Below are positions 13,719 through 37,600 of a DNA stretch of 64,000 nucleotides, piece after piece. The translations under genes and the position numbers were made by a program. Positions within the stretch are counted from its first letter, which is position 1; every line of letters starts with the position of its first letter. The stretch is from an uncultured Planctomycetota bacterium (lineage in GTDB: Bacteria; Planctomycetota; Planctomycetia; Isosphaerales; Isosphaeraceae): contig CAWGMQ010000004.1 of NCBI GenBank assembly GCA_963823665.1, positions 2,112,001 to 2,176,000 on the forward strand, in the 5' to 3' direction. The notes below the pieces were generated by a model. That model ran no database searches and was not told the DNA's origin. It saw only the letters and a list, made by a program, of their open reading frames with translations.

Positions 13719-15269
13719 TCACGACGCATGATCCAGCTCCAGTCCCACCGCGTGCCAATCCTCAGGCCGCAACTGCTGCACTGACTGCTGGACGCGTTTC
13801 ATGTCGCGGGTTGCGACATACGGCCGGGAGGCGGGAGATTCACCTTTGGTGGGTTCGACCAGATTGTGCAACTGATCGAGGTGCAGGGACAGCGGCTGGC
13901 GTGTCCAGACGGCGAACAGCCGCTCCTGCCCGGATGGCGGCGTCATCTCTACGTCCAAGATGTTCAGTGTGCGTTGCGCCTCGATCGGGGCCGAGGAATC
14001 GGCCGACTGCGGATCTGGATAGAGCAAGTTCAAATGTCCGGTCGGGCCGACGTTGAACACCGTCAGGTAGCCCGCCCGGTCGGCGATTGCCTCGATGCGC
14101 ACGTGGTCTCTGGTTCGCAGGCTAACCTGGTCGGGCGACTTTGGCACGCGTTTCATGTCGCGGGTTAGTCGATCGGGACGCGGGTGGGTGGCCGCCACGT
14201 GTTCATAACGGCCGCTGTTGACACGGCGGCTGACGTTGAGGCGAAGAGCCGCCGGTTTGTGCGGGCGAGCCTCGCCCTGCGGCGTGGATAGCGTGTCGGC
14301 CAGAAGCTGGTTGAGTGATCCTCGCAAGCTGTCGACGAACTCGCGCAGATTCGGTCGTTGATCCGGGCTCGACCTCAGGCCGGCGCGGATCACTCGCTCA
14401 AGCGGAGCGGGGAGCCCAAGGCACCTGGAATCCGGGTCGGGCAGGCCCATGGCGATCTGCGCTTTATAGTCAGAGATCTGCGTGCCGAGGAATGGCTGAA
14501 ACCCGGTCACGAGGTGAAACAGCGTCGCGGCCAAGCCGTAGACGTCAAGCGAAGGTGAAACCTTGCCGTCATATGCCTCGGGGGCCATGTAGGCGAGCGA
14601 TCCGGCGACGCTGGCGGGGTCGCCCAGCCACGAGCCCACTCCAAAGTCAGTCAGAAGCGCCTCGTCACGCTTCGGCTCCCAGAGAATGTTCGCCGGCTTC
14701 ACGTCGCGGTGGACAATTCCTTGCTTGTGGACCGCGAGCAACCCCTCGCCCACATCGGCGATATACCGGGCGGCTCGCTGCCAGAGGAGCGGCCCTTCTG
14801 CCTTCAACAGATCGGCAAGGGACCCGCCCGGCACGTATTGCATTACGAGGAAGTGCTGCTCGCCGACTGTCAGCCAGGTGTAAACCCGCACAACGTTGAG
14901 GTGAGCGACCTGAGTCAGCAGGTGTGCGTCCTTCCGGAGCACCTGCACGGCCCGCCGCCGCTCGTCGGGGGCGGTGCCAACCCTGAGTGTTTTCACTGCG
15001 ACCACTCGCGGCAGGTTCAAGTCCTGCGCCAGCCAGACCTCGCCGAACGCTCCGGAGCCGAGGAATTTGTACACGCGGTATCCGTGGATTCCCAGGTCGG
15101 GCATTGTCGTGCCGGTGGGCACGTCTTCAGGCGTCAGATCGTCGAGCATGCGCTGACAGTCAAAGCATTCCTCGACGTGCGCCTCGATCCAGGCATGCCA
15201 TGCCGGCCCGAGCGAGTCGTCTTGAGTCACGTATTGCTTCAGTTCCCCAGGCGCAGGACAAGCGGCCAT
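13719..15269 (-). CDS. Zn-finger (anti-sigma-like) - Ser/Thr kinase - DUF4384 protein
   Basis: N-terminal CP...HVEECFDC (HxxxCxxC); GSGAFGEVW, VAVK, HRDVKPAN, DFG, APE; C-terminal DHVRIEAIADRAGYLTVFNVGPTGHLNLLYP...PPSGQERLFAVW typical of DUF4384; GAGGTG RBS. Confidence 0.85.
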   Translation of the reverse strand: MAACPAPGELKQYVTQDDSLGPAWHAWIEAHVEECFDCQRMLDDLTPEDVPTGTTMPDLGIHGYRVYKFLGSGAFGEVWLAQDLNLPRVVAVKTLRVGTAPDERRRAVQVLRKDAHLLTQVAHLNVVRVYTWLTVGEQHFLVMQYVPGGSLADLLKAEGPLLWQRAARYIADVGEGLLAVHKQGIVHRDVKPANILWEPKRDEALLTDFGVGSWLGDPASVAGSLAYMAPEAYDGKVSPSLDVYGLAATLFHLVTGFQPFLGTQISDYKAQIAMGLPDPDSRCLGLPAPLERVIRAGLRSSPDQRPNLREFVDSLRGSLNQLLADTLSTPQGEARPHKPAALRLNVSRRVNSGRYEHVAATHPRPDRLTRDMKRVPKSPDQVSLRTRDHVRIEAIADRAGYLTVFNVGPTGHLNLLYPDPQSADSSAPIEAQRTLNILDVEMTPPSGQERLFAVWTRQPLSLHLDQLHNLVEPTKGESPASRPYVATRDMKRVQQSVQQLRPEDWHAVGLELDHAS

Positions 15270-15283
15270 GACAACACCTCGCG

Positions 15284-15871
15284 TCAATTCGAATGTTCAA
15301 GGAGTTCGACTTCCTGCTGAAGCAGGGTCAGGACCTGATACTTTGCCTGGCTAACCGCGCCGACCTTCATGCCAAGCTCTCGGGCCACATCGGCACCTTT
15401 GCGGCATTGTTCCGCTATTTCCACATATGCGGACCAAGTGCGCGGCTCGACGCGGGCGCGTACGTTTTCTTTGGCTTTTTGCAGCAATTCCAGGTCGTAT
15501 TCCCGCGCGAGCCTTGCCAGCAGGTCCTCGCCTGCCTCTACCTCTTCCACAAGACCATCGCCGTCGACCACCCGCCGCCCTCGCTCTCTCTCCTTCAGGT
15601 CTGCCATCAAACGGTGCGTCACGGTTTTCAGGTATCCGCGGAAGGTTCTGGCGGGGTCGTAGACGAACTCCCTCAGTCGCCTGACCAGCAGGAGCATGAC
15701 TTCGTTAACCATGTCCTCGGTCTCACGCGGAAACCACCGGTGGCACCAACCGCTGATCATCGGGGCATAGCGCGCGTAAAACTCCTCCCATGCCTGTTGA
15801 TCTGCGGGGTCGTGGAGGCGGCCCAACAGGGTCCGGCTGGTCCGCGCTGGGTCGAAGCTGCCCGTAGTCAT
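15284..15871 (-). CDS. ECF RNA polymerase sigma factor (planctomycete kinase-associated type)
   Basis: TSRTLLGRL..DQQAWEEFYARY, TEDMVNEV, FVYDP..TFRGYLK, region 4 VARELGMKVGAVSQAK; GAGGT RBS before ATG 15871. Confidence 0.92.
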   Translation of the reverse strand: MTTGSFDPARTSRTLLGRLHDPADQQAWEEFYARYAPMISGWCHRWFPRETEDMVNEVMLLLVRRLREFVYDPARTFRGYLKTVTHRLMADLKERERGRRVVDGDGLVEEVEAGEDLLARLAREYDLELLQKAKENVRARVEPRTWSAYVEIAEQCRKGADVARELGMKVGAVSQAKYQVLTLLQQEVELLEHSN

Positions 15872-15919
15872 CGCTGGTACCTCGGTTCGACTTCGGAATC
15901 GCGACCATCCAACTCTCTG

Positions 15920-15948
15920 ATAGGGGGATCGGAACGATTTCTCAGACG
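15920..15948 (-). promoter_or_regulatory. candidate ECF promoter, copy 2, upstream of the sigma gene (CGTCTGAGaaatcgttccgatccCCCTAT)
   Basis: Same motif and spacing as 38068-38096; ~50 bp upstream of the sigma ATG, consistent with autoregulation. Confidence 0.65.
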
Positions 15949-16039
15949 GGATTTCCATTGAAAGGTTTTCCGCCGAGTTCTGTACGAGATCACAGCGAGA
16001 GAAAGCGCAATGGGCGGAGTTCATGAGCTGTTCGGATTG

Positions 16040-16069
16040 TCTCTGAGATCCCGCCCCATCGACCCCTAT
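16040..16069 (+). promoter_or_regulatory. candidate ECF promoter, copy 3, upstream of the SGNH hydrolase (tcTCTGAGatcccgccccatcgacCCCTAT)
   Basis: Divergent from copy 2; both continue as CCCTATCAG. Confidence 0.5.
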
Positions 16070-16198
16070 CAGCCTACAGAGGGTCGGTGAGCCAAATCCA
16101 ATGATTTCAATACCATCCCTCCGAACACGGGAAGCCGATCGGCGTGCGCACCATCGCTGACCAGGTGTTCCGAACCTTGGTCTCGAATCCACAGGGAG
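16056..16198 (+). repeat. 143-bp imperfect direct repeat, copy A
   Basis: Colinear with 22775-22917 (shared GTGAGCCAAATCCAATGATTTCAAT..CCATCCCTCCGAA, GATCGGCGTGCGC, TGGTCTCGAATCCAC..GGGAG). Confidence 0.9.
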
Positions 16199-16206
16199 AA
16201 ACAACA

Positions 16207-17985
16207 ATGAAACTTGCTCGCAGGAAAAACGATGGTGTCAACCGGTTTGGTTTGAACGGAATCCTCATCATCCTCGGCGTCGGGGCTTGTCTGTTAGTCG
16301 TGGCCTTACAAGTCGATCGCGGGCCCGAACGCTCGGGCGCGAGCGCGTCTGCCCTGCCGCCAGTCCCCGTAAGGATCACCTGGGCCATGGCCGAGCGATT
16401 CGGCCCCGGCTATGACCGCAACCACGACGGCCGGCCCGACCTTCCCAATTCGCACGAATACGTGAACCCTGGTCGATACGAGGTTCATCTCGCCGCGAGC
16501 GTCGGCGCCAGCGCCCAAGCGACCGCGGACATGTCGTGCGTCTGGACGATCGACGGTCCTAATCAAGCGACTGGTCTGTGTGCGGCCGGGCCGAAGCCGG
16601 TGGTCCAGCTCCCGATGGGCACCTACTCCGTGACGGTTACCGTCCACCTTGCCGACGGCCGGGCCGGATTGGCCCGCGAGACAGTCCGCGTGAAGGACAT
16701 CCTGATCGTCGTGCTCGGCGACTCGCTGGCCGCCGGCGAGGGTAACCCTGAGGTGCGCGCGTGCTGGAAGGGGGCGGGGACTTCGGCCCAGACCTGGAAG
16801 CTCCGAGGCCGCCTCGACCCGCCAACGCCCGCCGGATGGGCCTATGGCGGCCCCGGTGGCGATCAGCCCCGTGCGACCCCCGCGGGGATTTTGCCACCGG
16901 CAGACGTCTCGCACGCCACGGCTCATCGCTCGACTCTCTCGGGCCCGGCTCAGTTCGCGAAGCGCCTTGAGGCGGAAGACCCACACACGTCGGTCACGTT
17001 CGTCTGCCTGGCCGCCACCGGCGCGCGTATCGATGAGCTATTCAACAGCGAGCGGTCAGTGTGCAACAAGACCAGGGGGCCGGGGCCGGCACTCCGGGCC
17101 CAGATTGATGAGCTGCACGCGATTGCAGGCTGTCGGCCGGCAGACATTCTTGTCCTGTCCGTCGGCCTCAATGACGCCGGTGGCTTTGAATTGCTGGGCG
17201 AGCTACTTCGCCGGGAGATCCGGTGCGTTGATCCATGCCGTTTGCTCGCGGTCTACCCGACGCGCAAGGAGTGGACGGCGGCCGCGTCTCCGGACCTCGA
17301 GGCCTTGGTCGACCCGACGAAACGCTCGTGGCTAAACGGACTCGAGGCCGACGCCCGGCGCACCGCACTGGTCAAAGACGCCGCCCTGATCTTCGACCTG
17401 GCCGAGATGGCCGCAGCCGGGGTGGCAAGGGCCCGCGAGCAATTCGAACGCCTGACAACAGCGATCGCCAGCGATCAGCTCCTGGCCCAGGCGGAGATCT
17501 ACCTGCTCGAGTACCCCGACCCAACAGGTGACGCAAACGGCACCGCGGGCGCGGCCATGCTGGCGGACCTCGTCCCCGGCTTTCAGGTCAATCGTCGCGA
17601 GCTGGATCTGGCCCACGAGCGCTTGTTGCGTCCCCTGATGATGATGCTCCGTGAGGTGGCCAGCAGCCAGAACTGGACCTGCGTTGACGGGATCTTCACG
17701 ACGTTCCGGAGCCACGGCCCTGCGGCGACGGAAGCCTGGTTCGTGAAGGCGAAGGAGTCAGAGGAGCTTCAGGGCCCGCGCTTGACGCCCCTGGCGTACG
17801 TCCGCGGCGAGTTTTCTCCGGGAATGCTGCACCCGAATCGGCGTGGACATCAGGTCGTCGCCGATCAGTTGTACGAGCGCCATGCGGCGGTCAGGACGGG
17901 TCGGCTCCGGGCACCGCAGGTGGTTTCTCGTGGTCTCTCCAGCTCCGATCAGGTTCGCTTTGGAAGGGACCGGAGGCCTCGCTGA
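16207..17985 (+). CDS. membrane-anchored/secreted PKD-like + SGNH/GDSL hydrolase
   Basis: N-terminal hydrophobic helix; GTYSVTVTV PKD-like strand; block I GDSLAAGEG, block III SVGLND, block V LHPN; GGGAG RBS. Confidence 0.8.
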   Translation: MKLARRKNDGVNRFGLNGILIILGVGACLLVVALQVDRGPERSGASASALPPVPVRITWAMAERFGPGYDRNHDGRPDLPNSHEYVNPGRYEVHLAASVGASAQATADMSCVWTIDGPNQATGLCAAGPKPVVQLPMGTYSVTVTVHLADGRAGLARETVRVKDILIVVLGDSLAAGEGNPEVRACWKGAGTSAQTWKLRGRLDPPTPAGWAYGGPGGDQPRATPAGILPPADVSHATAHRSTLSGPAQFAKRLEAEDPHTSVTFVCLAATGARIDELFNSERSVCNKTRGPGPALRAQIDELHAIAGCRPADILVLSVGLNDAGGFELLGELLRREIRCVDPCRLLAVYPTRKEWTAAASPDLEALVDPTKRSWLNGLEADARRTALVKDAALIFDLAEMAAAGVARAREQFERLTTAIASDQLLAQAEIYLLEYPDPTGDANGTAGAAMLADLVPGFQVNRRELDLAHERLLRPLMMMLREVASSQNWTCVDGIFTTFRSHGPAATEAWFVKAKESEELQGPRLTPLAYVRGEFSPGMLHPNRRGHQVVADQLYERHAAVRTGRLRAPQVVSRGLSSSDQVRFGRDRRPR

Positions 17986-18261
17986 TCGCAAGTGAGGTCG
18001 AACTGGTTTCTGTCCTCGGTACACGATCGGTCGGCCGAGGAGGAGTCAGCCGGGAAGTCAACGTATAATGCCAGTTCTACGATCAATCGATCAGCAAGCG
18101 CTGGGAAGGTGACCCGCTACATGAATCGCGTCCGGTGATCGGTGCAGAAGTTGTGCTGCGGTGATCGGCAGGCGGTGGGCCTGGTGCTGGATGATGGCCA
18201 TTGAGGGAACCACGCTAGAGTGGCAATTTGCACTCAAACGGGGTTTGGGAGAAATGAACCC

Positions 18262-21200
18262 ATGGCCTTGAACCGCACTACTGGCGGTCTCATGCAGGAA
18301 CTCCACCGACTTTTTCGGCGAGCCATAAAGCTCCGCCAACAGGGTCGCTGTCAAGAGGCAATTGTCCGTCTGACTCACGCCCGAGACGCAGCTCGTCGCC
18401 ATCTGGGACTACACCATCCCGCCTATGCCACCAGCCTGAACAACCTAGCATTCCTGTATGCGGAGATGGGGGAATACGCGGTGGCCGAGCCTCTCTTCTA
18501 CGAGGCCCTCGGGATCTACCGCGCGACGCTGGGGGCGAACCACCCCGAGTATGCGGGTAGCCTCAACAACCTGGCGACGTTGTACCGGCATATGGGGGAC
18601 TACGACGCCGCCCAATCACTCTACTGCCACGCCCTGGAGATCCGCCGCGCGGTGCTGGGCGAGCATCACCCCGTCTACGCCAAGATTCTGAGCCACCTCG
18701 CGCTGTTGTACCAGGCGATGGGGGACTACGCGGCGGCCGAGCCCCTCTTCCGCGAGGCCCTCGGAATCTACCGCGCGACGCTGGGCGAGAGCCACCCCGA
18801 CTATACCGGCAGCCTAGACAACCTGGCGGGGCTGTACTGCGCGATCGGAGACCACGCGGCGGCCGCGCCCCTCATCCGGCTGGGGCTCGAAATCGTTCGC
18901 GCGGCGCGGGGTGATGACCACCCCGACTACGCCAGAAGCCTGGACCGCCTGGCGGGGCTGTATTGCGCGATCGGAGACCACGCGGCGGCCGAGCCCCTCT
19001 GTCGCCAGGCCCTGGAGATCCGCCGCGACGCGCTGGGCGAGAGTCACCCCGACTATGCCGCCAGCCTGAACAGCCTGGCGGCGCTATACTGCGCGATCGG
19101 GGACTACGTGGTCGCCGCGTCCCTCATCCGGCTGGGGCTCGAAATCATTCGCGCGGCGCGGGGTGACGACCACCCCGACTACGCCAGGAGCCTGGACAGC
19201 CTGGCGGGGCTATATTGCGCGATCGGGGACTACACCGCCGCCCTACCTCTCCACCGCCACGCCCTGGAGATCCGCCGCGCCGCGCTGGTCGAGAGTCACC
19301 CCGACTACGCCGCCAGCCTGGACAGCCTGGCGGGGCTGTATTGCGCGATCGGGGACCACGCAGCCGCCGCGCCCCTCTACCGCCAGGCCCTGGAGATCCG
19401 CCGCACGGCGTTGGGCGAGGACCACCCGGACTACGCCACCAGCCTGAGCAACCTCGAGGGGGTGTACCGAGCGATGGGGGACCACGACGCCGCTTTGCAT
19501 CTCTGCCGCCAGGCGCTGAAGATCCGCGGCACTGCGGTAGGCGAGGACCATCCCTCCTATGCCACCAGCCTGAACAGCCTGGCGGGGTTGTGCCGGGAGA
19601 TGGGGGACTACGACGACGACGCCACCAGCCTGAACAGCCTGGCGGGGCTGTATTGCGCGATCGGGGACTACGCGGCCGCCGCGCCCCTCTACCGCCAGGC
19701 CCTGGAGATCCGCCGCACGGCGCTGGGCGAGGACCACCCGGACTACGCCACCAGCCTAAGCAACCTGGCGGGGGCGTACCGAGCGATGGGGGACCACCCC
19801 GCCGCTGCCACCGGCCTGGACGGCCTGGCGGGGCTGTATTGCGCGATCGGGGACTACGACGCCGCCCTATCACTCTACGGCCGGGCCCTGGAGATTCGCC
19901 GCACGGCGCTGGGCGAGGACCACCCGGACTACGCCACCAGCTTAAGCAACCTGGTGGGGGTGTACCGAGCGATGGGGGACCACGCCGCCGCTTTGCACCT
20001 CTGCCACCAGGTGGTGCTGGAGATCCGCCGCACCCCGGCAGGCGAGGACCATCCCTCCGATGCCACCGGGCTGAGCAGCCTGGCGGGGTTGTGCCGGGAG
20101 ATGGGGGACTACGCCGCCGCCGTATCACTCTACGGCCGGGTCCTGGAGATCCGCCGCACGGCGCTGGGCGAGGACCACCCGGACTACGCCACCAGCCTGA
20201 GCAACCTGGCGACGTTGTACCAGGACACAGGTGACTACGCCGCCGCCCTAGCGCTCCACCGCCGCGCGCTGGAGATCCGCCGCGCCGCGCTGGTCGAGAG
20301 TCACCCCGACTATGCCGCCAGCCTGAACAGCCTGGCGGGGCTGTATTGCGCGATCGGGGACCGCGCGGCGGCCGCGCTCCTCTACCGCCAGGCCCTGGAG
20401 ATTCGCCGCACGGCGCTGGGCGAGGACCACCCGGACTACGCCACCAGCCTAAGCAACCTGGCGTGGGTGTACCGAGCGATGGGGGACCACGCCGCCGCTT
20501 TGCACCTCTGCCGCCAGGCCCTGGAGATCCGCCGCGCCGCGCTGGTCGAAAGTGACCCCGACTATGCCGCCAGCCTAGACAACTTGGCGGGGCTGTATTG
20601 CGCGATCGGGAACTACGCGGCCGCCGCGCCCCTCTACCGCCGGGCCCTGGAGATCCGCCGCACGGCGCTGGGCGAGGACCACCCGGACTACGCCACGAGC
20701 CTGAGCAACCTGGCGACGTTGTACCAGGACATAGGTTACTACGCCCCCGCCCTAGCCCACCACCGCCAGGCCCTGGAGATCCGCCGCACCGCCTTGGGCG
20801 AGTGCCACCCGCACTTTGCCATCAACCTGAGAAACCTGGCGGACTCGTGGGCCGCCTTGGGCCGAGCCTGGCTGGCTATGCCCCTCATGGAACAGCTCGC
20901 GTCCATCGAGGACCGGATGATCGGACAGGTCTTCGCGATCGGTTCCGACAGGCAGAGAATCGCATACCTCAGGACGGTCCTGGGCAATCTTCACACGTTC
21001 TTGTCTCTGGTACAGCAACACCTCGCCGACTCCCCCGCAGCCATCCGCGCCGCCCTAGACCTGGTATTGCGCCGTAAGGCGATCGCGGCCGAGGCGCTGG
21101 CCACCCAGCGCGATGCCGTGCTGGGAGGCAAGTATCCCGGATTGGAGCCCAAACTACGCGAGCTCGCCGCCCTGCGGCTGCAGATCGCCCGCAAGACACT

Positions 21201-22809: not shown

Positions 22810-22917
22810 GCCAAATCCAATGATTTCAATGCCATCCCTCCGAAGAAGCGAAGTCGATCGGCGTGCGCGCCGCCTCTGAGCAGGTGTTATGAGCCCTGGT
22901 CTCGAATCCACCGGGAG
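22775..22917 (+). repeat. 143-bp imperfect direct repeat, copy B
   Basis: Same length as and colinear with 16056-16198; overlaps the last codons of TPR-CHAT. Confidence 0.9.
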
Positions 22918-22920
22918 CGG

Positions 22921-29374: not shown

Positions 29375-29377
29375 TCG

Positions 29378-30319
29378 ATGGCAACGAGAAAGCCCACTCT
29401 CTTCTCGACAGAGTCCGTTGGCAACGTAGCCGTTTTTCGGATCGAGACGACGACGTTGTTCGACGAGCGTGACGTAAAACGTTTGTTTGACGAACTCGCT
29501 GAGGCCATCGGCCCGCGTTCACAAATCATCGTTGATCTGGCGCAAGTTCTTCATATGAGCAGCACGGCCCTATCAAAGCTGGTACTGATGCATAGGCAAT
29601 CAAGAATCAGAGGGGGCCAGGTCGTCCTGTGTAACTTGGCACCGAAAGTGAGCGAAGCGTTCCGGACCAGCAAGCTCGACAAGTTGTTTGAGATCGCGTC
29701 GAGCCTGGAGGAGGCCCTGGCCGCCCTGCACTGGTCCTTGGAGGTCAGGTGCCCAATCGCGGGTTGTGAGGGGACCAGTCTGTCCCACGAACCATCCATA
29801 GCCGAGCAGGGAGGAGTGCAGTGCTGCCGGTCATGTGGCTGCCGGTTCTGGTTGGCTCCGTTCCAGCTCTCCCCGCGCGGCGAGGCCCGGGTCGCGGTGT
29901 CGCGCTTCGCGATCCCTACCTATGAGCAGGAGCAGATTCGCGCGGCGCTCGGTGTCATCGTGGTTTTTGATATCGTCGGCCGGCTGGACCTATTCGCCTC
30001 CGAGGCGTTGGTCGACGCCTGGCGGTCCGTGCCACAGTCGTGTCGTGCTTTGCTCGATCTCCGCGCGGCGACGGAGTTGAGCGAACCGGGCCTTCGTTTG
30101 CTCAAGGGGCATGTCGGCATCAATAATACCTCGCCCAATCGGATCGTCGTCTTGGTCGACCAAGATCGGTTTACTCGAACGCACGCGATTATTTCGAATG
30201 CTTGCATCACGACCAACCACGACGAAGCAATGTCCGCACTGCACGGTTCTCTTGCATCGGACGAATCGCCGACTCCTCTCATGGTGCTGGCGCGAAAGGT
30301 CGACACAACGATGGAATAA
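29378..30319 (+). CDS. STAS (anti-sigma antagonist) - Zn ribbon - second STAS-like domain
   Basis: IIVDLAQVLHMSSTALSKL...GQVVLCNL..KVSEAF..SKLDKLF; CPIAGC...CRSC; second GRLDL...LLDLRAATELSEPGL; starts 3 bp after the PP2C gene stop. Confidence 0.82.
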   Translation: MATRKPTLFSTESVGNVAVFRIETTTLFDERDVKRLFDELAEAIGPRSQIIVDLAQVLHMSSTALSKLVLMHRQSRIRGGQVVLCNLAPKVSEAFRTSKLDKLFEIASSLEEALAALHWSLEVRCPIAGCEGTSLSHEPSIAEQGGVQCCRSCGCRFWLAPFQLSPRGEARVAVSRFAIPTYEQEQIRAALGVIVVFDIVGRLDLFASEALVDAWRSVPQSCRALLDLRAATELSEPGLRLLKGHVGINNTSPNRIVVLVDQDRFTRTHAIISNACITTNHDEAMSALHGSLASDESPTPLMVLARKVDTTME

Positions 30320-30448
30320 CCCCAGTTGCCTCACGCGGAGCCACCAGCCGGGCGGCGCGAGTTCTTGTGATCGACACCTTGACGCTGGAAGCCACTCGTG
30401 GCCGTAGATCCGTGCTAATCGGGCCCGGGGAACACTGGTCCGGACAGA

Positions 30449-31310
30449 TCATTGCGGCCGAACCGCCGCCGCGCTACGATGACCTATGGCCGGAGCGGTA
30501 GCCGAAATGCCTGAGCAGTTCGCGGCGCCAAGAACGCGGCAAATTCTCTTCTGAAACTGGGATCCTGAACCAGTTCAGACGAGGGCCATGCATTTCACGC
30601 CGTGTCGGAGGTCCGTTTGGAGAAGATCAAGGTACTGCTCTTCGCCGCGAATCCGCGGGGCACAGCACCGCTTGATCTGGCGCGCGAGTTCCGCGAGATC
30701 GACGAAGAAGTGCGTCTGGGCACGTTCCGGAGCGCGGTTGAGCTGATCCTCGTTCCCGGCACGCGGCCGGTTGATCTGCTGCGAAAGCTCAACGAAAACC
30801 AGCCACAGATCGTGCATTTCAGCAGTCACGGTAGTCCGGACGAGATCGTCCTCGAATCCGGGGAGCCAGAGGCCGCGGATGTGGGTTTGGGCGGCGCCAT
30901 TCTTCGTTCGGCTGATGAACGGGACATGAAGAAGGTAGGCCCGGTCGAGGTCGTCGGCTTGGGCCATGGCGAGCCTCAAGTGGTCAGCAAGTCGGCGCTT
31001 GTGAATGTGCTGCGTTCCTGCAACCAGGGTAATCTCCGGCTGGTGGTGCTGAATGCCTGCAGCACCCGGCCACAGGCCGAGGCGCTGACAGAGGTCGTTG
31101 ACTGTGTTGTAAGTATGAATCAGACCATCACGGACCGGGCAGCAATCATGTTCGCGGCCTCGTTTTATGGAGCGCTGGCATTTGGTTGCTCCGTGCAAAA
31201 GGCGTTCGAGCAGGGAGTGGCGCGGTTGGGCGCGGAGGCGATTATCGAGTGCGACACGCCTGAGCTGGTGATAAGGAGGGGAGTTGACGCCGCGCAGGTC
31301 GTGCTGGTTG
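30449..31310 (+). repeat. ~860-bp duplicated cassette (upstream region + CHAT domain), copy B
   Basis: See copy A at 26405-27266. Confidence 0.95.
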
Positions 31311-34300
31311 GACTGGCACCGAAAACGCCTGCGACCCCGGCCCCCGAGGCTTCGTTCATCGTACCATTTCCGCGGAACGGCGAGTTTGTCGGACGGGATG
31401 GCGACCTGCAGCGGCTGCATGCTCAATTGTCTGGTCCGGGATCGGGCCCGGTCGGCATCCGCCCGGCTGGTCTGACTGGGATGGGCGGCATTGGCAAGAC
31501 CCAGCTCGTGGTCGAGTACGTGTACCGACATCGGGACGATTATCCGGATGGCATCTTCTGGATCGACGCGGCCGGACCTCTGGCTGAAGGCTTTGCCAGG
31601 CTGGCGACGGATCATCGTTTGCGCTGGGCCGAGAACGAACAGCCTCGCGATGAGCAGATTCAGGCGGTGTTCAAGACGTTCGACTCCAGGCCACGAGCGC
31701 TACTGGTGCTCGACAATCTACCTGACCCGTCGGCATTAGCTGTCTCGCTTTCAACTGGCTGTGTACCGGAGGATTTGCGCTGCCGGGTGCTGTTCACAAC
31801 GCGCCGGCACGACCTGGGGCGGTTTGTGGGGATTGAAGTCACGATCCTGCCCGAGGAGCCGGCTTTGCAGCTCCTGCTTCGGCACCCCTCACGCCGCGCG
31901 GCTCTGATACCATCCCATACCGATCACGAGCACGCCCGCGCAATTGCGCGGATGCTCGGCCGCTTACCCCTGGCGCTGGAGCTGGCTGGGGCATACCTTG
32001 GCAAGTACAGCGCCGAGGTCTCGCTCGAGGACTATCGCGAGGGGCTGAAGTCCGACGGGGCTTTGGCGACGCTCAATGCCGATGCCGCCGAGTTGACCGA
32101 GGCCGACCTGAGGCGGGTGCACGACCCCGCCGTGGCGGCGACGATCGGCGAACAGTGGGCGTCATTGCGAGACGAGTCGGCCCGGCTGCTGCTACAGGTT
32201 GCAAGTCTTTTTTCGGAATCGACCGCGGTGCCGATCGTGCGACTCGGCCTGCTGGCGGGTTTCAGTGACGAGGCGCGGCCGGGACGGCGCTCGCCGCTGC
32301 GCCGTACGGCGCAGCGGCTCGATGACGCGTGTCTGATTGAGCGGTTGGAAGGGGACCAACTTCGGCTGCATCCGTTGATACGTGAGTTTGCTCGCGGTCA
32401 GATGTCTGCGGACCAGATCGACCAATTCGTGTGCGCATGCCTGGCTCGCGTGGCCACGGCAATTGAAGAGTGTAAGACGCTCGAAGCGCTGTATGCGGAG
32501 CGTGGGGTGGACTCTCTCCAGGAAGATCTGATCGCTTTCCTCGAATTGTGTAAGGTATCGGCTTCGGATCTCTTAGCCCGGCTCCAGATCGTTTTACGGC
32601 TCATGCAGCAGGAGGCTCACAACCTTCGTGGTGGCCAAGCAAAAACCAGCCCGACGTATTTTGCTCAACAGGTCCGGAACCGGGCGGTGCTTTTGAGCAT
32701 CGCCCCTCTTCGCGGAAGTGCAGAAGCACGACTCGCCGCGCTCGCCGAGCCGCACTTTGCATTGCAATGGACGGCGAGCCGTGAATCGCGAGATTTGATC
32801 CGTACACTGACCGGCCACGGAGACTGGGTCAGCGCAGTGGCGGTGAGCCGCGACTCCCGTCACGCCTTCTCTGGTTCTGGAGACCGCACGCTGAGGTTGT
32901 GGAATCTGCGAACGGGTCAACTCCTGCGCACATTCACGGGACACGAGCATACCGTGAAGGCTGTGGCGGTGAGCCCAGATGGCCGACAAGTTCTATCAGG
33001 TTCGCACGACTGCACGCTGAGACTTTGGGATGTGGAAACCGGTGGTCTTCTCAACACTTTCACAGGCCACGCGGGCATGGTGTTCGCGCTGGCGATGAGC
33101 CCCGACGGTCAACAGGCCGTCTCAGGCTCGCGCGATTGCACGCTCAGGCTCTGGGACCTGCAGACTGGCCAGCTCTTGCGCACCTGCGTGGGCCATGAAG
33201 ACGGGGTATGCGCGGTTGCGATTTGCCCAGACGGACGCCGTGCCTTTTCCGGTTCGCGCGATCGCACAGTGAGGCTGTGGGACCTTCAGACGGGTCGGCT
33301 CCTCCGTACCCTCACGGGCCATGACGATATGGTCTTCGCCGTGGCGGTTAGCCCCGATAGCCGGCACGGCCTCTCGGGCTCCGAGGATCGCACACTGAGG
33401 CTTTGGGACCTGCAAACCGGCCAGCTCCTTCGCACATTCGCTGGCCACGAAGGCGGAATAAATGCAGTGGCGATGAGCGCTGACGGCCGCCACGGCCTCT
33501 CGGGCTCCGAGGACCGCACACTGAGGCTTTGGGACCTACAAACCGGGCGGTTCCTTCGCACATTCGCCGGCCATGAGCATGGGGTGGGTGCAGTGGCGAT
33601 CGCTCCTGACGGGCGACATGTTCTCTCGGGGTCTGATGACCGCACCGTCAAGCTCTGGGATCTCGTGGCCGGCCACTCTCCACCGATCACCAATGGACAC
33701 GCCAGCGCTGTGAGCGTGGTGGCGATGAATCTGAATACTCGCCAGGCTCTCTCCGGCTCGCGCGATTGCACGCTTCGACTCTGGGACATGCGAACCGGCC
33801 TGCTCGTGCATTCGTTCAGCGGGCACGAGAGCGAAGTGAATGTAGTGACGATCTCGCCTGACGGACGTCATGCCCTATCCGGCTCCTACGACCGCACCCT
33901 CAAGCTCTGGGATCTGCGGACTGGCCAACTCGTCCGCACATTCGCAAGCCGCGAGGGTTCGTATGGTGTGATAGCGGCAAGCCCCGACGAACGCGATGCT
34001 CGCTCCGGTTCCCTGCACCACACCCTGAATTTTTGGGACCGTCGATACGGACGGTTAATGCGGACAATTCACCGCACGCTAAAGCTATCGGCGCTTCGGG
34101 CACTGCAACAATGGGTCCTCTTATTGAACCATTCGCAGTGGGTAAATGCCGTGGCTACAACTTCCAACGGCCGCTGCGCCCTCACGGGTGCGCAGGACGG
34201 CACACTCAAACTCTGGGATTTGCGGACCGGTTATCTCATTCGCTCTTTCGTCGGCCACACGAATGCTATTGCTACGGTGGTGGCGGCATCCGATGACCAC

Positions 34301-34687
34301 TTTCCTCCTTCTGGCTCCGAGGGCCACACGAATGCTATTGCCACGGTGGTGGTGGCATCCGATGACCACTTTGCTCTTTCTGGCTCCGAGGACCACACGC
34401 TCCGGCTCTGGGACCTCGTGACCGGCCAGCTCCTGCACACCTTTACTGGGCACACGGGCCCGGTGAGCGCTGTCGCGCTAACCTCGGACGGGCGTCATGC
34501 GGTTTCAGGCGCGCGCGACCGCACGCTTCGGCTCTGGGATCTAGAAATGCGAGTCTGCCGAGCCATTGTACCGCTTGAAGGTGCGCCTGCGTCGGTCGCG
34601 CTCGGGTCCGACGGCCAAACCATAGTCGTCGGTGATAGAATTGGGAATGTGCATTGCTTCCATATCTTGAGTCTTGGCGAGGGCTGA
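30617..34687 (+). CDS. CHAT - NB-ARC (STAND) - WD40 NLR-like protein
   Basis: CHAT nearly identical to the 26573 gene; VPFPRNGEFVGR, Walker A GMGGIGKT, Walker B LLVLDN, TTR, LPLAL, LHPL; about 14 GH...WD repeats; TTG start inferred by homology with 26573. Confidence 0.93.
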   Translation: MEKIKVLLFAANPRGTAPLDLAREFREIDEEVRLGTFRSAVELILVPGTRPVDLLRKLNENQPQIVHFSSHGSPDEIVLESGEPEAADVGLGGAILRSADERDMKKVGPVEVVGLGHGEPQVVSKSALVNVLRSCNQGNLRLVVLNACSTRPQAEALTEVVDCVVSMNQTITDRAAIMFAASFYGALAFGCSVQKAFEQGVARLGAEAIIECDTPELVIRRGVDAAQVVLVGLAPKTPATPAPEASFIVPFPRNGEFVGRDGDLQRLHAQLSGPGSGPVGIRPAGLTGMGGIGKTQLVVEYVYRHRDDYPDGIFWIDAAGPLAEGFARLATDHRLRWAENEQPRDEQIQAVFKTFDSRPRALLVLDNLPDPSALAVSLSTGCVPEDLRCRVLFTTRRHDLGRFVGIEVTILPEEPALQLLLRHPSRRAALIPSHTDHEHARAIARMLGRLPLALELAGAYLGKYSAEVSLEDYREGLKSDGALATLNADAAELTEADLRRVHDPAVAATIGEQWASLRDESARLLLQVASLFSESTAVPIVRLGLLAGFSDEARPGRRSPLRRTAQRLDDACLIERLEGDQLRLHPLIREFARGQMSADQIDQFVCACLARVATAIEECKTLEALYAERGVDSLQEDLIAFLELCKVSASDLLARLQIVLRLMQQEAHNLRGGQAKTSPTYFAQQVRNRAVLLSIAPLRGSAEARLAALAEPHFALQWTASRESRDLIRTLTGHGDWVSAVAVSRDSRHAFSGSGDRTLRLWNLRTGQLLRTFTGHEHTVKAVAVSPDGRQVLSGSHDCTLRLWDVETGGLLNTFTGHAGMVFALAMSPDGQQAVSGSRDCTLRLWDLQTGQLLRTCVGHEDGVCAVAICPDGRRAFSGSRDRTVRLWDLQTGRLLRTLTGHDDMVFAVAVSPDSRHGLSGSEDRTLRLWDLQTGQLLRTFAGHEGGINAVAMSADGRHGLSGSEDRTLRLWDLQTGRFLRTFAGHEHGVGAVAIAPDGRHVLSGSDDRTVKLWDLVAGHSPPITNGHASAVSVVAMNLNTRQALSGSRDCTLRLWDMRTGLLVHSFSGHESEVNVVTISPDGRHALSGSYDRTLKLWDLRTGQLVRTFASREGSYGVIAASPDERDARSGSLHHTLNFWDRRYGRLMRTIHRTLKLSALRALQQWVLLLNHSQWVNAVATTSNGRCALTGAQDGTLKLWDLRTGYLIRSFVGHTNAIATVVAASDDHFPPSGSEGHTNAIATVVVASDDHFALSGSEDHTLRLWDLVTGQLLHTFTGHTGPVSAVALTSDGRHAVSGARDRTLRLWDLEMRVCRAIVPLEGAPASVALGSDGQTIVVGDRIGNVHCFHILSLGEG
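34253..34390 (+). repeat. 69-bp in-frame tandem duplication inside a WD40 blade
   Basis: GHTNAIATVVAASDDHFPPSGSE followed by GHTNAIATVVVASDDHFALSGSE. Confidence 0.9.
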
Positions 34688-34690
34688 TCG

Positions 34691-37600
34691 ATGGAGGCTG
34701 CAACGGGCGAACGCGCCGGGGCAGCGGTCTTGATCGGGATCGGCGACTATTTGCTTGGAAAGCAGGTCTGGCCGCTGCGTTATGCTCGCGCGATGCAGAG
34801 GCGATGGCGGCTGTCCTCTCCGATCCCGATGTCTGCGGATTTCCTGCGCACAAGGTCAAGCTCCTCACCGATCAATCGGCCTCCCGCGACACGGTTGCCC
34901 ACCACCTTTCGAAGTGGCTACCCGAGCAAGCTCGCGGGGCAGAAATTGCGGTCATCTACTTTGCTGGCCACGGGATGATTCACCGGATCGGGCAGCGGGA
35001 GGAGGGCTATCTGCTCCCCTACGATGCCGATCCCGACGATCTGGAGACGCATGGCGTGCTCATGACCGATCTGGCCCGGTGGATCGAGGCGATTGATGCC
35101 GGGACGGTTATCGTCTGCCTTGACTGCTGTCATGCGGCAAAGGTCCTTCCGCGCGGGGTAGCTTCGGCACCGGCGACTGGGCGCAATATGCGGATCAGGC
35201 CGGCAATGCTCCAAGAATTGACGGGCCGAGGACGATACTTGATCGCGTCGTGCGACGATGGCCAGGTCTCACTCGAGTCGGACACGTGGGGGCATGGGCT
35301 TTTTACCTATCATCTTCTCGACGGCATCGGAGGCGCGGGCGATCGAGACGGTGATGGACGGATCGGCGTCGCCGAACTGTTCGAGCACGTGGCCGAGGCG
35401 GTGGAACGTGATTCCCGCGCGCTCGGGACGATCCAGAAGCCGTGGAGCTGCTCAATTGGATCTGGCGGCGTCTATCTGTCCGCTCCGCGTCGGAAGGGCG
35501 ATGCAGGGCGATCAAAACCCGCTCGGGCAATGTCTGTTACCGCCGCCGAGCGTCTATGCCGCGAGCAGGGTGCAGCGGCCACCATCGGCGAAATTGAGCG
35601 AACAATTGACTGGGCGGATGTCGGCCAGCTCGGGCTGATTGTTGACCTGCTGAGAGTGATTGAACACCCGGCGGCGATTCCTCTGCTATTCCGATGTCTG
35701 GCGCACGCGCGGGAGGAAGTCCGCACTCGGGCCAAGACGGTCGTGCGTACGATCGGCTGGGAGAAGGTGGCGGCTTTCATCGAAGTTCTCGCTCGGTGTG
35801 GCGACGACGAACAGTTTGGTGCGGTGCTCGATGGATTGGCCGCGTTCGAGGCTCACCGCGAGATCGTCACGTTGCTCGACCGGCTGGTGACCATGCTCAA
35901 AGGCGACCAGCGTAACCGGACAATCTTTCTGCTGGAGCGGAAGCACCAGTCCCTGGACCTCGAGCGCATAACGGAATTGTTTCGCGAGTCGCAAAGCCCT
36001 TACCAGATCCAGAAGGTTTTGGGCCAGGGGCTTTGTACGGCGGCTTACCTTGCGCGCGACGAGTCCAGCGAACTCGAGGTCGTGGTCCGCGTACTTCGCC
36101 CCGAACTGGCGAGCTCGCCGCAGATTCGGGCGCAGTTTCTGGACCTCTCGCGGCGGTCGCTCAAGCTCGTTCATGAGAACTTGGTTCTGACCCGGGAGGT
36201 CAAGGCTTATTCCGACCGACACATCTACTTCGCGGTGCGGGACTTTGTGGATGGAGTCACACTCCAGAAGCTGCTTGAATCGGGCCGCGCCTTCTCTCCG
36301 GATCAGATCATCAAGATTCTCCGGCAGGTTCTCCGAGCGCTCGTGCCGCTGCATGCCAAGGGGATTTTGCATGGGTCGATCAAGCCGTCCAACCTCTTTC
36401 TGTGCGGTGAGGATCGGGTGATCCTGGGGGATCTCGCCTTGCCGTTGCGTGGGTTTAGCGTGCAGCTCGACCGACTGTCGTACGATTACCGCTATGCGCC
36501 TCCGGAGATGTTTCGCGAGGACGGCGCACTCGGCCCCTGGTCAGACTTTTACGCCGTGGGCTGCGTGGGGTACGAGCTGGCGTGCGGAGCACCTCCGTTC
36601 GTATCTGACAATTATATCGAGCTGGCCGGGCGGCACGTCGGCGAGACAGCCGGCCCGCCCAGCGGGCGCGGTAGCAGGCTGGGCGCGGCCGGCGATGCCG
36701 TGCTCCTTCGTTTTCTGGCCAAGTCAACATCGGATCGACCGCAGATCCTGGGTGAGGCCCTTGAGTCCATCGACGAGCTGCATTCCGCTCTGTTCCCGAG
36801 GATGCAACCGAAATCTCCACCGGCACCGATTTTGGCGGACGCATCGCTGATTCGATATGTGACTGATGATGCTTTGTCTCTGGTTTCCTTCGCGTTTGAC
36901 GCGAGATCGGTTGAGGACACTACCACAAGCCGAATCACAGGAGTGACCGCGACGGGGACGGAACACACCCTTGCATTCGCGATTGATCCCGATGAGGAGA
37001 AATTAGCGCATCGATTCAAGGCAGACGGTTCTCGGATCGGAAGATACACAATCATCAAGGAGATCGGCAGAGGAGGTCTGGGAGCGGTGTATCTTGCGCA
37101 TGACGAACGTCTCCAACGGAACGTGGCCATCAAAGTCGTCGCTCGGGCGTACCACAGTGATTCCAGTTGGCGGAGTCGGTTCGAACGCGAAGCCACGCTG
37201 ATGGCCCGACTTGATCACCCGAGCATCGTCAGAATTCTTGACATGGGTGAGGAGGATGGCTCGTTTTACACCGTTCTCGAGCTCGTCTCGGGTGGGGACC
37301 TTGGGCACCAACTTCGGGATCGAGCCTGGCTGCCGGAGGAGGCAGCTCGGCTTATGGCAACGCTGGCGCGGGCAGTGGACAGTGTGCATTCTCATGGCGT
37401 CATCCATCGCGACCTGAAGCCTTCCAATATTTTGTTTGATATATCCGGAACGCCCAAGATCACCGACTTCGGTCTGGCCAAGCTGATCGGCGAACAGCAA
37501 GAGGATGCTGCGGAAACGACGGAAGGGATGGTCATGGGAACGCTAGCGTACATGTCGCCGGAGCAAGCCAGTGGAGAGATCGGCAGAATTGGTCCGGCAA

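Follow-up and report, generated by a model that had tools for sequence, protein, structure and literature searches.

A conserved R-D-[ML] motif as a candidate common cleavage site in a planctomycete protease-kinase-sigma factor module

We propose that the tripeptide R-D-[ML], in its extended form R-D-M-[KR]-x-[VI], is a shared short linear recognition and cleavage site of a cytoplasmic protease-kinase-sigma factor module, which is encoded in the window (the whole stretch of 64,000 nucleotides analysed here) and occurs also in relatives that the sources name planctomycetes. This proposal, taken as a whole, we give about an even chance of being right. Because the motif is conserved in homologues, it can hardly be due to chance, and because the CHAT of the module is homologous to a caspase-activating CHAT protease, the motif is best read as a proteolytic recognition site that the proteins have in common, and its carriers as members of a cascade.

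The domain names given to the island proteins in the original prediction proved correct in a Pfam scan of 12 proteins. On the − strand, the kinase-DUF4384 gene (13719..15287) encodes a Ser/Thr kinase (Pkinase, 2.5e-40) with a C-terminal DUF4384 (4e-06), and immediately upstream of it, on the same strand, lies the gene of a sigma-70 region-2 protein (15284..16207; Sigma70_r2, 4e-08), a sigma-then-kinase order that is found also in the genomes G013 and G071. The N-terminus of the kinase has an H-x3-C-x2-C arrangement that is weakly zf-HC2-like (E 0.061, under the Pfam cut-off), and no membrane helix is predicted in the protein, the peak Kyte-Doolittle 19-aa mean being 1.25. We consider this kinase the candidate substrate and the candidate partner of the sigma factor. 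On the + strand are the TPR-CHAT protease (1529 aa, 18220..22809; CHAT, 1.4e-66, and TPR families), the sequence of which contains HLATHG and LSAC, the CHAT-NACHT-PP2C (SpoIIE) STAND protein (26573..29374; catalytic His71 and Cys148), the CHAT-NACHT-WD40 STAND protein (30602..34687), the CHAT domain of which is 88% identical to that of its PP2C twin, and the caspase-kinase (34654..37947), having a Peptidase_C14 domain (9.8e-12) and two kinase domains (Pkinase, 9.3e-82, in two stretches). A TssK-like/GAF/CHAT fusion of 1116 aa (22921..26271, − strand) matches T6SS_VasE (3e-29), GAF_3 (4.1e-10) and CHAT (2.9e-14). The STAS-domain protein between the twins (29378..30319, + strand; STAS, 8.3e-15) has no R[DN]M over its whole length, and neither has the kinase-TPR protein that adjoins the module (10973..13303, − strand); a similar kinase-TPR protein flanks the module in G071.

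Seven R-[DN]-M sites had been noted in six island proteins, and all seven were found in place. In kinase-DUF4384 the sequence TRDMKRV occurs twice, at aa 375-381 (site K1; 14145..14165, −) in the interdomain linker, 9 aa ahead of the start of the DUF4384 match (aa 390), and at aa 493-499 (K2; 13791..13811, −) in a conserved C-terminal tail past DUF4384. TPR-CHAT has GRDMAKR at aa 1125-1131 (T1; 21592..21612, +) in the linker from the TPR array to the CHAT domain, and in addition SRDL at aa 1276-1279 (T2; 22045..22056, +) in a variable stretch within the CHAT domain, while TssK-GAF-CHAT has TRDMVL at aa 901-906 (G1; 23554..23571, −) in a variable linker ahead of the CHAT core. ERDMKKV lies in the same insertion between the catalytic His and Cys in both twins, at aa 101-107 of CHAT-NACHT-PP2C (C1; 26873..26893, +) and aa 106-112 of CHAT-NACHT-WD40 (C2; 30917..30937, +), and is thus one site that is common to them by descent. 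The caspase-kinase has GRNMRIR at aa 176-182 (P1; 35179..35199, +), at the end of a disordered post-Cys linker; counting from the second Cys of DCCH (aa 159), its Arg177 comes 18 residues later, close to the 17 or so estimated before. The earlier claim that every site sits in a loop holds for two of the seven sites, those modelled with AlphaFold2: C1 is within residues 85-111, predicted with pLDDT<50, and P1 immediately follows a stretch of pLDDT<50 and precedes a helix.

The motif was expected to exceed its background frequency in the island, and it does. As background, 19 stretches of this genome, 20 kb each (ORFs of at least 150 aa), have 12 R[DN]M matches in 117,382 aa, giving 0.67 expected in the 6,558 aa of the island versus 7 observed (Poisson 6.7e-6, or 2.3e-4 for at least 5 with one twin dropped). 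The longer pattern RDMK[KR]V is nearly confined to the island, which has 4 of its 5 matches in the 16.46-Mb genome, the fifth being in an unrelated membrane protein; its reversed control has 0 matches in the 16.46 Mb. Across related loci amounting to 112 kb, R[DN]M is present in module proteins only, plus one unannotated 190-aa ORF.

Alignments of homologues, drawn from 121 genomes of the order, gave the same picture in each of the five protein families, where R-D-[ML] is a conserved island amid variable linkers. At K1, RDM is present in 15 of 17 other loci behind a variable upstream linker, and R[DN][MLIV] is kept in 118/118 database homologues; at K2, R-D-[MLI] is present in 17 of 18 loci and the motif is kept in 117/118 database homologues. 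The two kinase sites co-vary, the identical non-RDM variant occurring at both in four proteins versus 0.25 expected, a number reached in 0 of 20,000 shuffles that ignore the relatedness of the proteins. T1 is RDM in eight of nine orthologues (window included) and RDL in the ninth, with variable flanks, T2 is SRDL or SRDM in 6 of the 7 orthologues spanning the stretch, and G1 is RDM in 4/4 close orthologues (window included), both flanks of which differ in sequence and length. The insertion in the twin CHATs, estimated before at about 30-35 aa, is 34 aa, the His-Cys spacer being 77 aa versus 43 aa in nine insertion-free homologues. Close homologues with the insertion have RDM in 12 of 13 cases, the exception carrying an in-frame TGA; distant CHATs in which the insertion sits elsewhere show [GN]RD[LM] (4/4), and the insertion-free homologues do not have the motif there (9/9). 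Among database relatives with long His-Cys insertions, R-[DN]-[MLIV] is present in 110/110 and RD[ML] in 99/110. Besides the window protein, ten caspase orthologues have RDM (8), RDL (1) or RDS (1), and the post-Cys linker of database homologues has R[DN][MLIV] in 113/120, while distant C14 paralogues have chiefly [DG]-L at the motif column. In the caspase and at K2 the residues past the motif are conserved too, and part of the motif there could be structural. Note also that, contrary to what was expected, the motif did not co-vary with the caspase linker across the proteins: the window caspase has RNM and its partners have RDM.

Orthologues of the kinase, the caspase, TPR-CHAT and the insertion-bearing CHAT are spaced 3-20 kb apart in at least 8 genomes, and these four families, with the sigma factor, make up a gene module that is conserved. 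TssK-GAF-CHAT bears the motif, yet it does not adjoin the module in other genomes. Hence, all six proteins do carry the motif, but to treat the six as one unit was an overstatement, with the twins counting as one site and TssK-GAF-CHAT being outside the module elsewhere.

The sole PDB sequence match of the twin CHAT domain is SAVED-CHAT (8tl0; E 2.2e-32; Foldseek E 1e-13, TM 0.70). SAVED-CHAT is reported to cut and activate PCaspase in a type III-B CRISPR cluster of Haliangium ochraceum, which also encodes a sigma factor and a kinase (Steens et al.; bioRxiv 10.1101/2023.06.23.546230), the accessible part of the preprint giving no mapped cleavage sites. As in the island, a CHAT protease, a C14 caspase-like protease, a sigma factor and a Ser/Thr kinase are together there. 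By contrast, the sensors of the island are NACHT-WD40, NACHT-PP2C and TPR, with no SAVED domain among the Pfam matches of the 12 island proteins; the island caspase carries two fused kinase domains, and DUF4384 is part of the separate kinase; and the His-Cys spacer is 47 aa in SAVED-CHAT (H375 to C422) versus 77 aa in the island CHAT with its motif-bearing 34-aa insertion. Because of the conserved module and this homology, a cascade among the island proteins is plausible, cascades of that kind being already known.

The candidate scissile bond more probably follows Met/Leu, with a CHAT protease as the cutting enzyme, than Arg, because the mapped CHAT sites end in Leu or Met and R-D-M|K-[KR] fits them. 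In the source texts available in part, mapped sites are given for three prokaryotic CHAT proteases, all cutting after Leu or Met: SbCsx29 cuts I-D-L|D, requiring P3-P1, tolerating L407M and refusing Ile/Val at P1 (PMC9825189); DiCsx29 cuts AVGM|KKDK (PMC10028731; bioRxiv 10.1101/2022.08.17.504292); and the Runella CHAT cuts after Leu247. The Csx29 cut is in a flexible loop, with Asp at P2 in the case of SbCsx29 and Lys-Lys past the cut in that of DiCsx29. The output arm of Craspase is also alike: there the TPR-CHAT Csx29 cuts Csx30, a protein that holds an ECF-type sigma factor and in some cases has DUF4384 as its C-terminal domain, and the island has a TPR-CHAT and a sigma-linked kinase with DUF4384. 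Craspase differs in having Cas7-11 and an RNA guide, none being known for the island, in its substrate being Csx30 where the candidate in the island is a kinase, and in the P3 residue, which is Ile in SbCsx30 and Arg here; moreover, the island motif is also within the proteases themselves and a C14 caspase. Another related case is DdvA of Myxococcus xanthus, an anti-sigma factor with a TPR-CHAT domain and the partner DdvS, for which the available text proposes, as a proposal only, in-trans CHAT self-cleavage of a flexible linker (PMC11506125). DdvA is a weak fold match of the window CHAT model (Foldseek, E 1.7e-3), and in DdvA-DdvS a CHAT module is likewise described as coupled to the release of an ECF sigma factor; DdvA is, however, described as a membrane protein whose TPR-CHAT is periplasmic and whose active site is incomplete, whereas the island kinase has no predicted membrane helix and the His/Cys dyads of the island are complete.

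Cutting after Arg (R|D/N-M), as originally predicted, would instead be done by the C14 caspase-like protease, or by some other enzyme specific for Arg, first in its own post-Cys linker and then in the CHAT loops and the kinase, which we regard as possible but doubtful. Metacaspases and orthocaspases self-process after Arg or Lys in the linker past the catalytic Cys, the region where C14 relatives undergo processing and where the island site P1 is located. The island caspase domain is nearest to Arg- or Lys-specific relatives (MALT1, metacaspases 4 and 9, MCA2, GSU0716) and has an invariant Asp two residues ahead of the catalytic Cys (D115 in the numbering used there), which we take to line the S1 pocket. 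It thus resembles the metacaspases and orthocaspases in its C14 fold, this Asp and the basic residue in the post-Cys linker, differing in the conserved Asp/Asn and Met/Leu that come directly after the island Arg and in the occurrence of the same triplet in unrelated neighbours. Two conserved residues past the Arg would, however, mean prime-side specificity, which is unusual in clan CD enzymes; the residue ahead of the Arg is not common to the families (Thr, Glu/Asp, Gly/Ala); and no CHAT or kinase site has Lys in place of the Arg, a substitution that metacaspase-type enzymes usually tolerate. The mapped CHAT sites (x-D-L|, M|KK) also agree with the other register. In favour of the register after Arg, strict Arg specificity at P1 is reported for the bacterial C14 proteases of type IV Thoeris, and orthocaspase specificity for Arg/Lys is stated in an abstract (PMC6426788). 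Thus, of the idea that one protease specificity wires the proteins into a cascade, the shared, conserved element in a conserved module stands, with its exposure predicted at two sites, while the register after Arg is the weaker of the two given the mapped CHAT sites.

Two observations run against the register after Met/Leu. The Arg is the most invariant position (CHAT 110/110; kinase 118/118 and 117/118; caspases 120/120 by eye), which suits an Arg-specific C14 enzyme of the same module. Ile, Val or Phe occurs naturally at the third position (CHAT 6/110; caspases 5, and 4 with RNF or RDF, of 120), whereas SbCsx29 is reported to refuse Ile/Val at P1 (PMC9825189).

It is unlikely, in our view, that the motif serves uncut as a shared docking or regulatory peptide, i.e., a ligand of DUF4384, TPR or WD40, a pseudo-substrate or gate in the CHAT loop, or a kinase-regulated switch. 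The two co-varying copies on both sides of DUF4384 would suit a docking role. The DiCsx30 C-terminal domain is reported in direct association with Csx29 (PMC9825189; PMC10028731; bioRxiv 10.1101/2022.08.17.504292), some Csx30 C-terminal domains are reported to be DUF4384 (PMC10028731; bioRxiv 10.1101/2022.08.17.504292), and SAVED-CHAT is described as having unstructured gating loops above its substrate channel. A kinase-regulated switch would suit the residue at −1, which in most kinase sites is Thr, the CHAT loop having Glu, Asp or Gln there. On the other hand, what unites the motif carriers is only that they have a clan CD protease domain or a gene beside that of such a protease, and the likeness to the mapped CHAT sites is better accounted for by cutting. 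As for coincidence, with unrelated local structural needs giving the same tripeptide in each family and the likeness noticed post hoc, the enrichment of the 3-mer by itself is only borderline (0.065-0.20 equally rare tripeptide patterns expected in all five independent proteins, prior to correction for the choice of proteins) and, of the seven sites, the two in the twins go back to one by descent, but the persistence of the motif in every family amid varying flanks, its recurrence in independently placed CHAT insertions, and the near restriction of RDMK[KR]V to the island and of R[DN]M to module proteins in related loci make this very improbable.

Returning to the shared cleavage site, we infer the cutting as such, the enzyme, the bond and the order of events as follows. 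Triggering of the STAND/TPR sensors (CHAT-NACHT-WD40, CHAT-NACHT-PP2C and TPR-CHAT) would render the CHAT protease active, which would then cut after Met/Leu, so that Asp would occupy P2, Arg P3 and, usually, Lys or Arg P1'. The cuts would fall in its own disordered His-Cys loop or its own pre-CHAT linker, as self- or trans-processing; in the linker right past the catalytic Cys of the caspase-kinase, leading to activation as with SAVED-CHAT on PCaspase; and on both sides of DUF4384 in the sigma-linked kinase, as with Csx29 on Csx30, altering the kinase and the sigma output. If this is true, the proteases of the island most likely cut each other and the kinase, and would thereby switch on a defence or stress cascade.

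A single conserved site, R-[DN]-M and most commonly R-D-[ML], appears to be common to the proteases of the island, to the linker of its caspase and to both flanks of a DUF4384 domain, and this appears to be new. The position of the site inside the CHAT domain, in an insertion that separates the catalytic His from the catalytic Cys, likewise appears to be new, as do the versions of the module having NACHT, WD40 and TPR sensors; the kind of system, a CHAT-to-caspase cascade, is already known.

The island, at about 13.7-38 kb of the window, encodes nine proteins of interest by Pfam scan: a Ser/Thr kinase with a C-terminal DUF4384 (13719-15287, minus strand), a sigma-70 region-2 protein whose gene lies directly upstream of the kinase gene (15284-16207, minus strand), a GDSL/PKD protein, a predicted TPR-CHAT protease of 1529 aa (18220-22809), a TssK-like, GAF and CHAT fusion (22921-26271, minus strand), a CHAT-NACHT-PP2C protein (26573-29374) and its twin, a CHAT-NACHT-WD40 protein (30602-34687), a STAS protein, and a caspase-kinase with a Peptidase C14 domain and two kinase domains (34654-37947). 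The domain names that the original prediction had given to the island proteins are borne out by these matches. Just outside the module, a 739-aa protein (8105-10324, minus strand) has Helicase_C_3 as its sole Pfam match.

The CHAT profile (PF12770, cut-off 24) scores 225.3 bits in TPR-CHAT, 53.7 in TssK-GAF-CHAT and 31.5 in CHAT-NACHT-PP2C, with the CHAT domain of the second twin being 88% identical to that of the first. The catalytic dyads of the twins, His71/Cys148 and His76/Cys153, are both (nearly) invariant in the CHAT-domain alignment, and HLATHG...LSAC and HLIGHG...NTCHSG are present in TPR-CHAT and TssK-GAF-CHAT, respectively. By profile and His/Cys residues, all four are predicted proteases of the CHAT family (clan CD). 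The N-terminal domain of TssK-GAF-CHAT is like TssK of type VI secretion (T6SS_VasE, 3e-29), an unusual joining of a baseplate-like domain to CHAT. The caspase-kinase scores 45.5 bits with Peptidase_C14 against a cut-off of 21.4; H64, G65, C117 and H118 are invariant in its caspase-domain alignment, its caspase domain matches GSU0716, MALT1 and metacaspases in fold, and an hmmsearch matches it to metacaspase-4 (1.2e-13). It thus has the C14 profile, the His/Cys dyad and the caspase fold. DUF4384 in the island kinase reaches 27.2 bits against 27 with the whole protein and 30.2 bits with its C-terminal part.

The seven R-[DN]-M sites, namely K1 and K2 in the kinase, T1 in TPR-CHAT, G1 in TssK-GAF-CHAT, C1 and C2 in the twins and P1 in the caspase-kinase, together with an extra SRDL (T2, in TPR-CHAT), all lie where the original prediction had placed them. 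The distance of about 17 residues that it gave from the catalytic Cys of the caspase to the motif is measured as 18 (Cys159 to Arg177). The insertion that it estimated at about 30-35 aa between the CHAT catalytic His and Cys is 34 aa, because the His-Cys spacer is 77 aa in the twins versus 43 aa in nine insertion-free homologues.

Each motif-bearing region was searched against 121 genomes belonging to the same order, and the alignments were built from tblastn segments of unannotated DNA; the homologues are mutually related, so that the counts below overstate independence. The N-terminal CHAT domain is found in 24 of the 121 genomes (E<=1e-10; alignment of 26 sequences). Among 13 close insertion-bearing homologues (62-100% identity), 12 keep [EDGA]-R-D-M-[KRA] within an otherwise highly variable insertion, the exception carrying an in-frame TGA. 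In distant homologues (30-39% identity) the insertion is elsewhere, directly after His-Gly, with [GN]-R-D-[LM] in 4/4, and none of the nine insertion-free homologues has the motif there. The caspase occurs in 76 of the 121 genomes, and behind a linker varying in sequence and length the site reads RDM in 8, RDL in 1 and RDS in 1 of 10 other orthologues, which makes the RNM of the window caspase the odd one out. For the kinase (20/121 genomes), RDM stands at K1 in 15 of the 17 other loci and K2 is R-D-[MLI] in 17 of 18, the miss showing a frame change. TPR-CHAT (39/121 genomes) has T1 as RDM in 8 and RDL in 1 of nine orthologues including that of the window, while SRD[LM] at T2 is kept in 6/7; TssK-GAF-CHAT (11/121 genomes; 10/120 others) has RDM in all four close orthologues, with both flanks variable. 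In each of the five families, column by column, the three motif residues stand out as isolated peaks of conservation from poorly conserved surroundings, and it is indeed within variable insertions and linkers that the alignments place the conserved triplet, as had been expected.

The pattern extends to database scale. Among the best 120 of 179 CHAT matches, 111 have a recognisable His...Cys and 110 a long spacer; R-[DN]-[MLIV] is present in all 110 long spacers (RD[ML] 99, RDI 4, RDV 2, RNM 5), the Arg always being there. Among the best 120 of 445 caspase matches, R-[DN]-[MLIV] lies 5-21 residues past Cys-His in 113 (RDM 60, RDL 23, RNM 19, RNL 6, RDV 4, RDI 1), the other seven reading RAL, RSI, RNF, RDF (3) and REL. 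Among the best 120 of 314 kinase matches, K1 is kept in 118/118 and K2 in 117/118. The presence of RN variants in these relatives means that the D/N degeneracy assumed for the second position is real natural variation. The residue preceding Arg is Thr in nearly all sites of these best 120 kinases, and Glu, Asp or Gln in 79 of 97 distinct CHAT loop sites (Gly 9, Ala 6) from the best 120 CHAT matches. The island and its immediate neighbourhood hold five kinase domains, and, speculatively, phosphorylation of the Thr could gate recognition of the site.

Models predict that two of the sites are exposed. In the AlphaFold2 model of the CHAT domain (24-sequence alignment, pLDDT 81.5, pTM 0.80), residues 85-111, with the motif at 102-104, have pLDDT <50 and lie between two short strands. 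In that of the caspase domain (26 sequences, pLDDT 80.4), residues 119-134 right after the catalytic Cys-His have pLDDT <50, with the motif at 135-137 (domain numbering) just ahead of a helix. At these two modelled sites of the seven, the claim that the motif is in a loop rather than buried agrees with the predicted structures. A complex prediction for the CHAT and caspase domains scored 0.00; it was run without controls and counts neither way.

We consider that there is about an even chance that the site is cut after Met/Leu by a CHAT enzyme. In this register, R, D and M of R-D-M-K-[KR]-V would occupy P3, P2 and P1 and the following K, [KR] and V would occupy P1', P2' and P3', so that Asp would be at P2 and Met/Leu at P1, and the whole conserved triplet would lie on the non-prime side. 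Enzymes of clan CD usually read their substrates on the non-prime side. Parallels are the substrates of the Craspase protease Csx29, a TPR-CHAT enzyme. SbCsx30 is cut between Leu407 and Asp408, with P2 Asp406 and P3 Ile405 being important, and its L407M variant is cut like wild type whereas L407I/V are resistant (PMC9825189); DiCsx30 is cut between AVGM and KKDK, the cleavage being reduced by M427A alone (Kato et al. preprint). The proposed register shares Asp at P2 and Met/Leu at P1 with SbCsx30, and with DiCsx30 it shares the Lys-Lys that follows the cut. Csx30-like substrates combine a sigma-binding part with a C-terminal domain, which in some of them is DUF4384, and are cut by TPR-CHAT after Leu or Met. 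A possible further parallel to Csx30 is therefore a sigma-linked protein whose DUF4384 is bracketed by two candidate sites: the island kinase has DUF4384 flanked by Met/Leu sites and an adjacent sigma gene, as far as sequence tells. In addition, a Runella CHAT protease is described to cut its gasdermin after Leu247.

By contrast, the original prediction had the cut after Arg, between Arg and Asp/Asn-Met; such a cut, made by the caspase, we regard as doubtful. In its favour, Arg is the most invariant residue, the module contains an Arg-type C14 enzyme whose fold neighbours are MALT1 and metacaspases, and the third position is Ile, Val or Phe in some variants, which tells against a cut after Met/Leu. 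Moreover, an invariant Asp, which may line the S1 pocket, is two residues before the catalytic Cys of the caspase. Type IV Thoeris has a C14 protease that is described as strictly Arg-P1. It is the Csx30-like register, weighed against the invariance of Arg, the Arg-type C14 enzyme and the third-position variants, that sets how probable we hold each reading to be. A CHAT cut after Met would give new N-termini beginning with K, R, A or V, and a caspase cut after Arg would give Asp/Asn-Met.

We judge it unlikely that the site serves for docking or as a latch and itself stays uncut.

That the recurrence is a coincidence we hold to be very improbable. Composition predicts 0.71 R[DN]M in 6,558 residues, and 12 matches in 117,382 aa of ORFs from 19 further stretches of 20 kb in this genome give an expectation of 0.67, versus 7 observed in the island. 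The pattern was picked after inspection, and equally rare patterns are expected in all five independent proteins 0.065 (degenerate middle position) to 0.20 (any position) times by an analytical estimate that leaves the choice of proteins uncorrected, so that, while the predicted excess over the genome is present by comparison with the sampled ORFs, the post hoc tripeptide by itself is suggestive at most. Unlike the bare tripeptide, the shared string RDMK[KR]V is, as a sequence pattern, not just suggestive: at the DNA level it has 5 matches in the 16.46-Mb genome, 4 of them in the island, with a reversed control giving 0, and the fifth falls in a polytopic, unrelated membrane protein. Across related loci of four genomes, 112 kb in all, the R[DN]M-bearing ORFs of >=150 aa are module proteins and one unannotated 190-aa ORF only. 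Within the window's long ORFs, the sole R[DN]M outside the island is SVGRDMAARTS in a 241-aa ORF (57921-58646, plus strand). It is also noted that K1 (14145-14165) and K2 (13791-13811), both on the minus strand, share identical 21 bases including the synonymous positions, with AAA for both Lys, while the flanking DNA is unrelated; this could be due to chance codon choice, gene conversion or nucleotide-level selection.

Other readings of the motif were rejected. An NLR amyloid signalling motif reportedly recurs at two places, the extreme N-terminus of the NLR and the C-terminus of an effector next to it, and this reading fails on position and length (3-7 residues inside a CHAT catalytic domain, aa 101-107 of 933); for the D-box and separase ExxR readings, the register, compared by eye, does not fit.

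The two kinase sites vary together: the same non-RDM variant is at both in 4 proteins versus 0.25 expected, and 0 of 20,000 shuffles, which ignore kinship, reach 4. The expected co-variation of the motif with the caspase linker did not hold, with the window caspase having RNM and its partners RDM, and where the core varies the partners do not follow; for one caspase with RNMEL, two kinases and a CHAT protein are putatively on the same contig, none of them being among the listed non-RDM variants. Because the core is nearly invariant, co-variation across proteins is not demonstrable.

The genes also keep together. Orthologues of the kinase-DUF4384, the caspase, TPR-CHAT and the insertion-bearing CHAT-NACHT are 3-20 kb apart in at least eight genomes of several genera, while TssK-GAF-CHAT orthologues in other genomes are away from the module neighbourhood. 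By Pfam, the sigma gene immediately precedes the kinase gene in two of three neighbourhoods scanned (related genomes G013 and G071); in the third (G035) a sigma-r2 gene is beside the caspase gene instead. The sigma gene product has Sigma70_r2 at 33.4 bits (cut-off 24) and no match to sigma-70 region 4 at E<=10. The N-terminus of the kinase matches zf-HC2, the ZAS-type anti-sigma domain that would pair with an ECF sigma factor, below threshold (E 0.061, 13.9 bits versus 22.2), and two kinase homologues carry a precomputed PF13490. No membrane-helix-like stretch was found in the island kinase, and the module therefore looks cytoplasmic. Among the matches listed, the insertion-bearing CHAT domain in metagenomic proteins is fused to kinase, sigma-70 region 2 or TPR repeats; the database proteins P0065, P0074, P0079 and P0119 are such fusions, including protease-sigma fusions ('ECF subfamily' in the naming of the source).

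Several related loci are irregular. The caspase-kinase is split into three ORFs in G013 (L143, 7036-10404) and TPR-CHAT into two in G071 (L145, 8055-12248), and in-frame TGA codons or frame changes are seen in several other homologues, which could be decayed copies or assembly errors. In the window's own genome, contig 11 has a second module (L166, 5711-14400) of a kinase with a membrane-helix-like stretch and DUF4384, followed by two large CHAT proteins. At the position of K2 its kinase tail has SRGIPSPK, and ARGIL stands about 90 aa ahead of the His in one of the CHAT proteins; as a module-specific motif, no 4-mer recurs at a meaningful place in this cluster. On contig 8 (L012, about 1,557,400), a CHAT-NACHT paralogue without the His-Cys insertion has ANRDLIRL in a 17-residue insertion near the CHAT end, absent from other homologues.

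The sole PDB sequence match of the window CHAT domain is the SAVED-CHAT filament 8tl0 (E 2.2e-32), which is also by far its best fold match (E 1e-13, TM 0.70). In the type III-B CRISPR cluster of Haliangium ochraceum, SAVED-CHAT, activated by cA3, is described to specifically cut and activate PCaspase, which in turn cleaves a sigma factor and an inhibitor, and the cluster also encodes a Ser/Thr kinase; no mapped cleavage sites were found in the accessible part of this preprint on the one CHAT-to-caspase cascade published (Steens et al., bioRxiv 10.1101/2023.06.23.546230). A CHAT-to-caspase cascade with sigma factor and kinase is thus a known kind of system. The same parts are here, namely a homologous CHAT, a C14 protease, a sigma factor and a Ser/Thr kinase in a conserved neighbourhood, whereas the sensors are NACHT, WD40, TPR and PP2C, with no SAVED family, the sensor domain that responds to a cyclic oligoadenylate from type III CRISPR or CBASS, among the Pfam matches of 12 island proteins. 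From the conserved site in the linker after the catalytic Cys, we infer that a CHAT enzyme may cut and activate the caspase here. In the openly available full-text literature (main texts), no R-D-M or R-D-L site was found described for modules of CHAT or caspase proteases, and the eLife 2020 conflict-systems paper has 0 occurrences each of 'CHAT', 'DUF4384' and 'cleavage site'.

In bacteria, proteases of the CHAT and caspase-like kinds are coming to be recognised as switches for immunity and cell death, with very few substrates or cut sites known; here, sequence alone yields seven precise, conserved candidate sites in a parts list like that of SAVED-CHAT/PCaspase with other sensors. The placing of the insertion within the catalytic domain of the protease itself suggests a regulatory latch, and DUF4384, which often accompanies proteases, may be linked through the site to a candidate role as a cut or docked module of sigma-linked substrates. 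Tentatively, the module may carry a self-addressed proteolytic code: the CHAT's own site in the His-Cys loop would act as a zymogen latch or pseudo-substrate, cleaved once the enzyme is activated, and the same site in the caspase linker and the DUF4384 flanks would let one STAND sensor set off, feed-forward and all-or-none, the other proteases together with the kinases and the sigma factor. If this possibility is true, it would be a bacterial counterpart of the initiator/executioner caspase wiring, with a readable site, and sequence alone would suffice to predict what uncharacterised modules of CHAT and caspase proteases cut.
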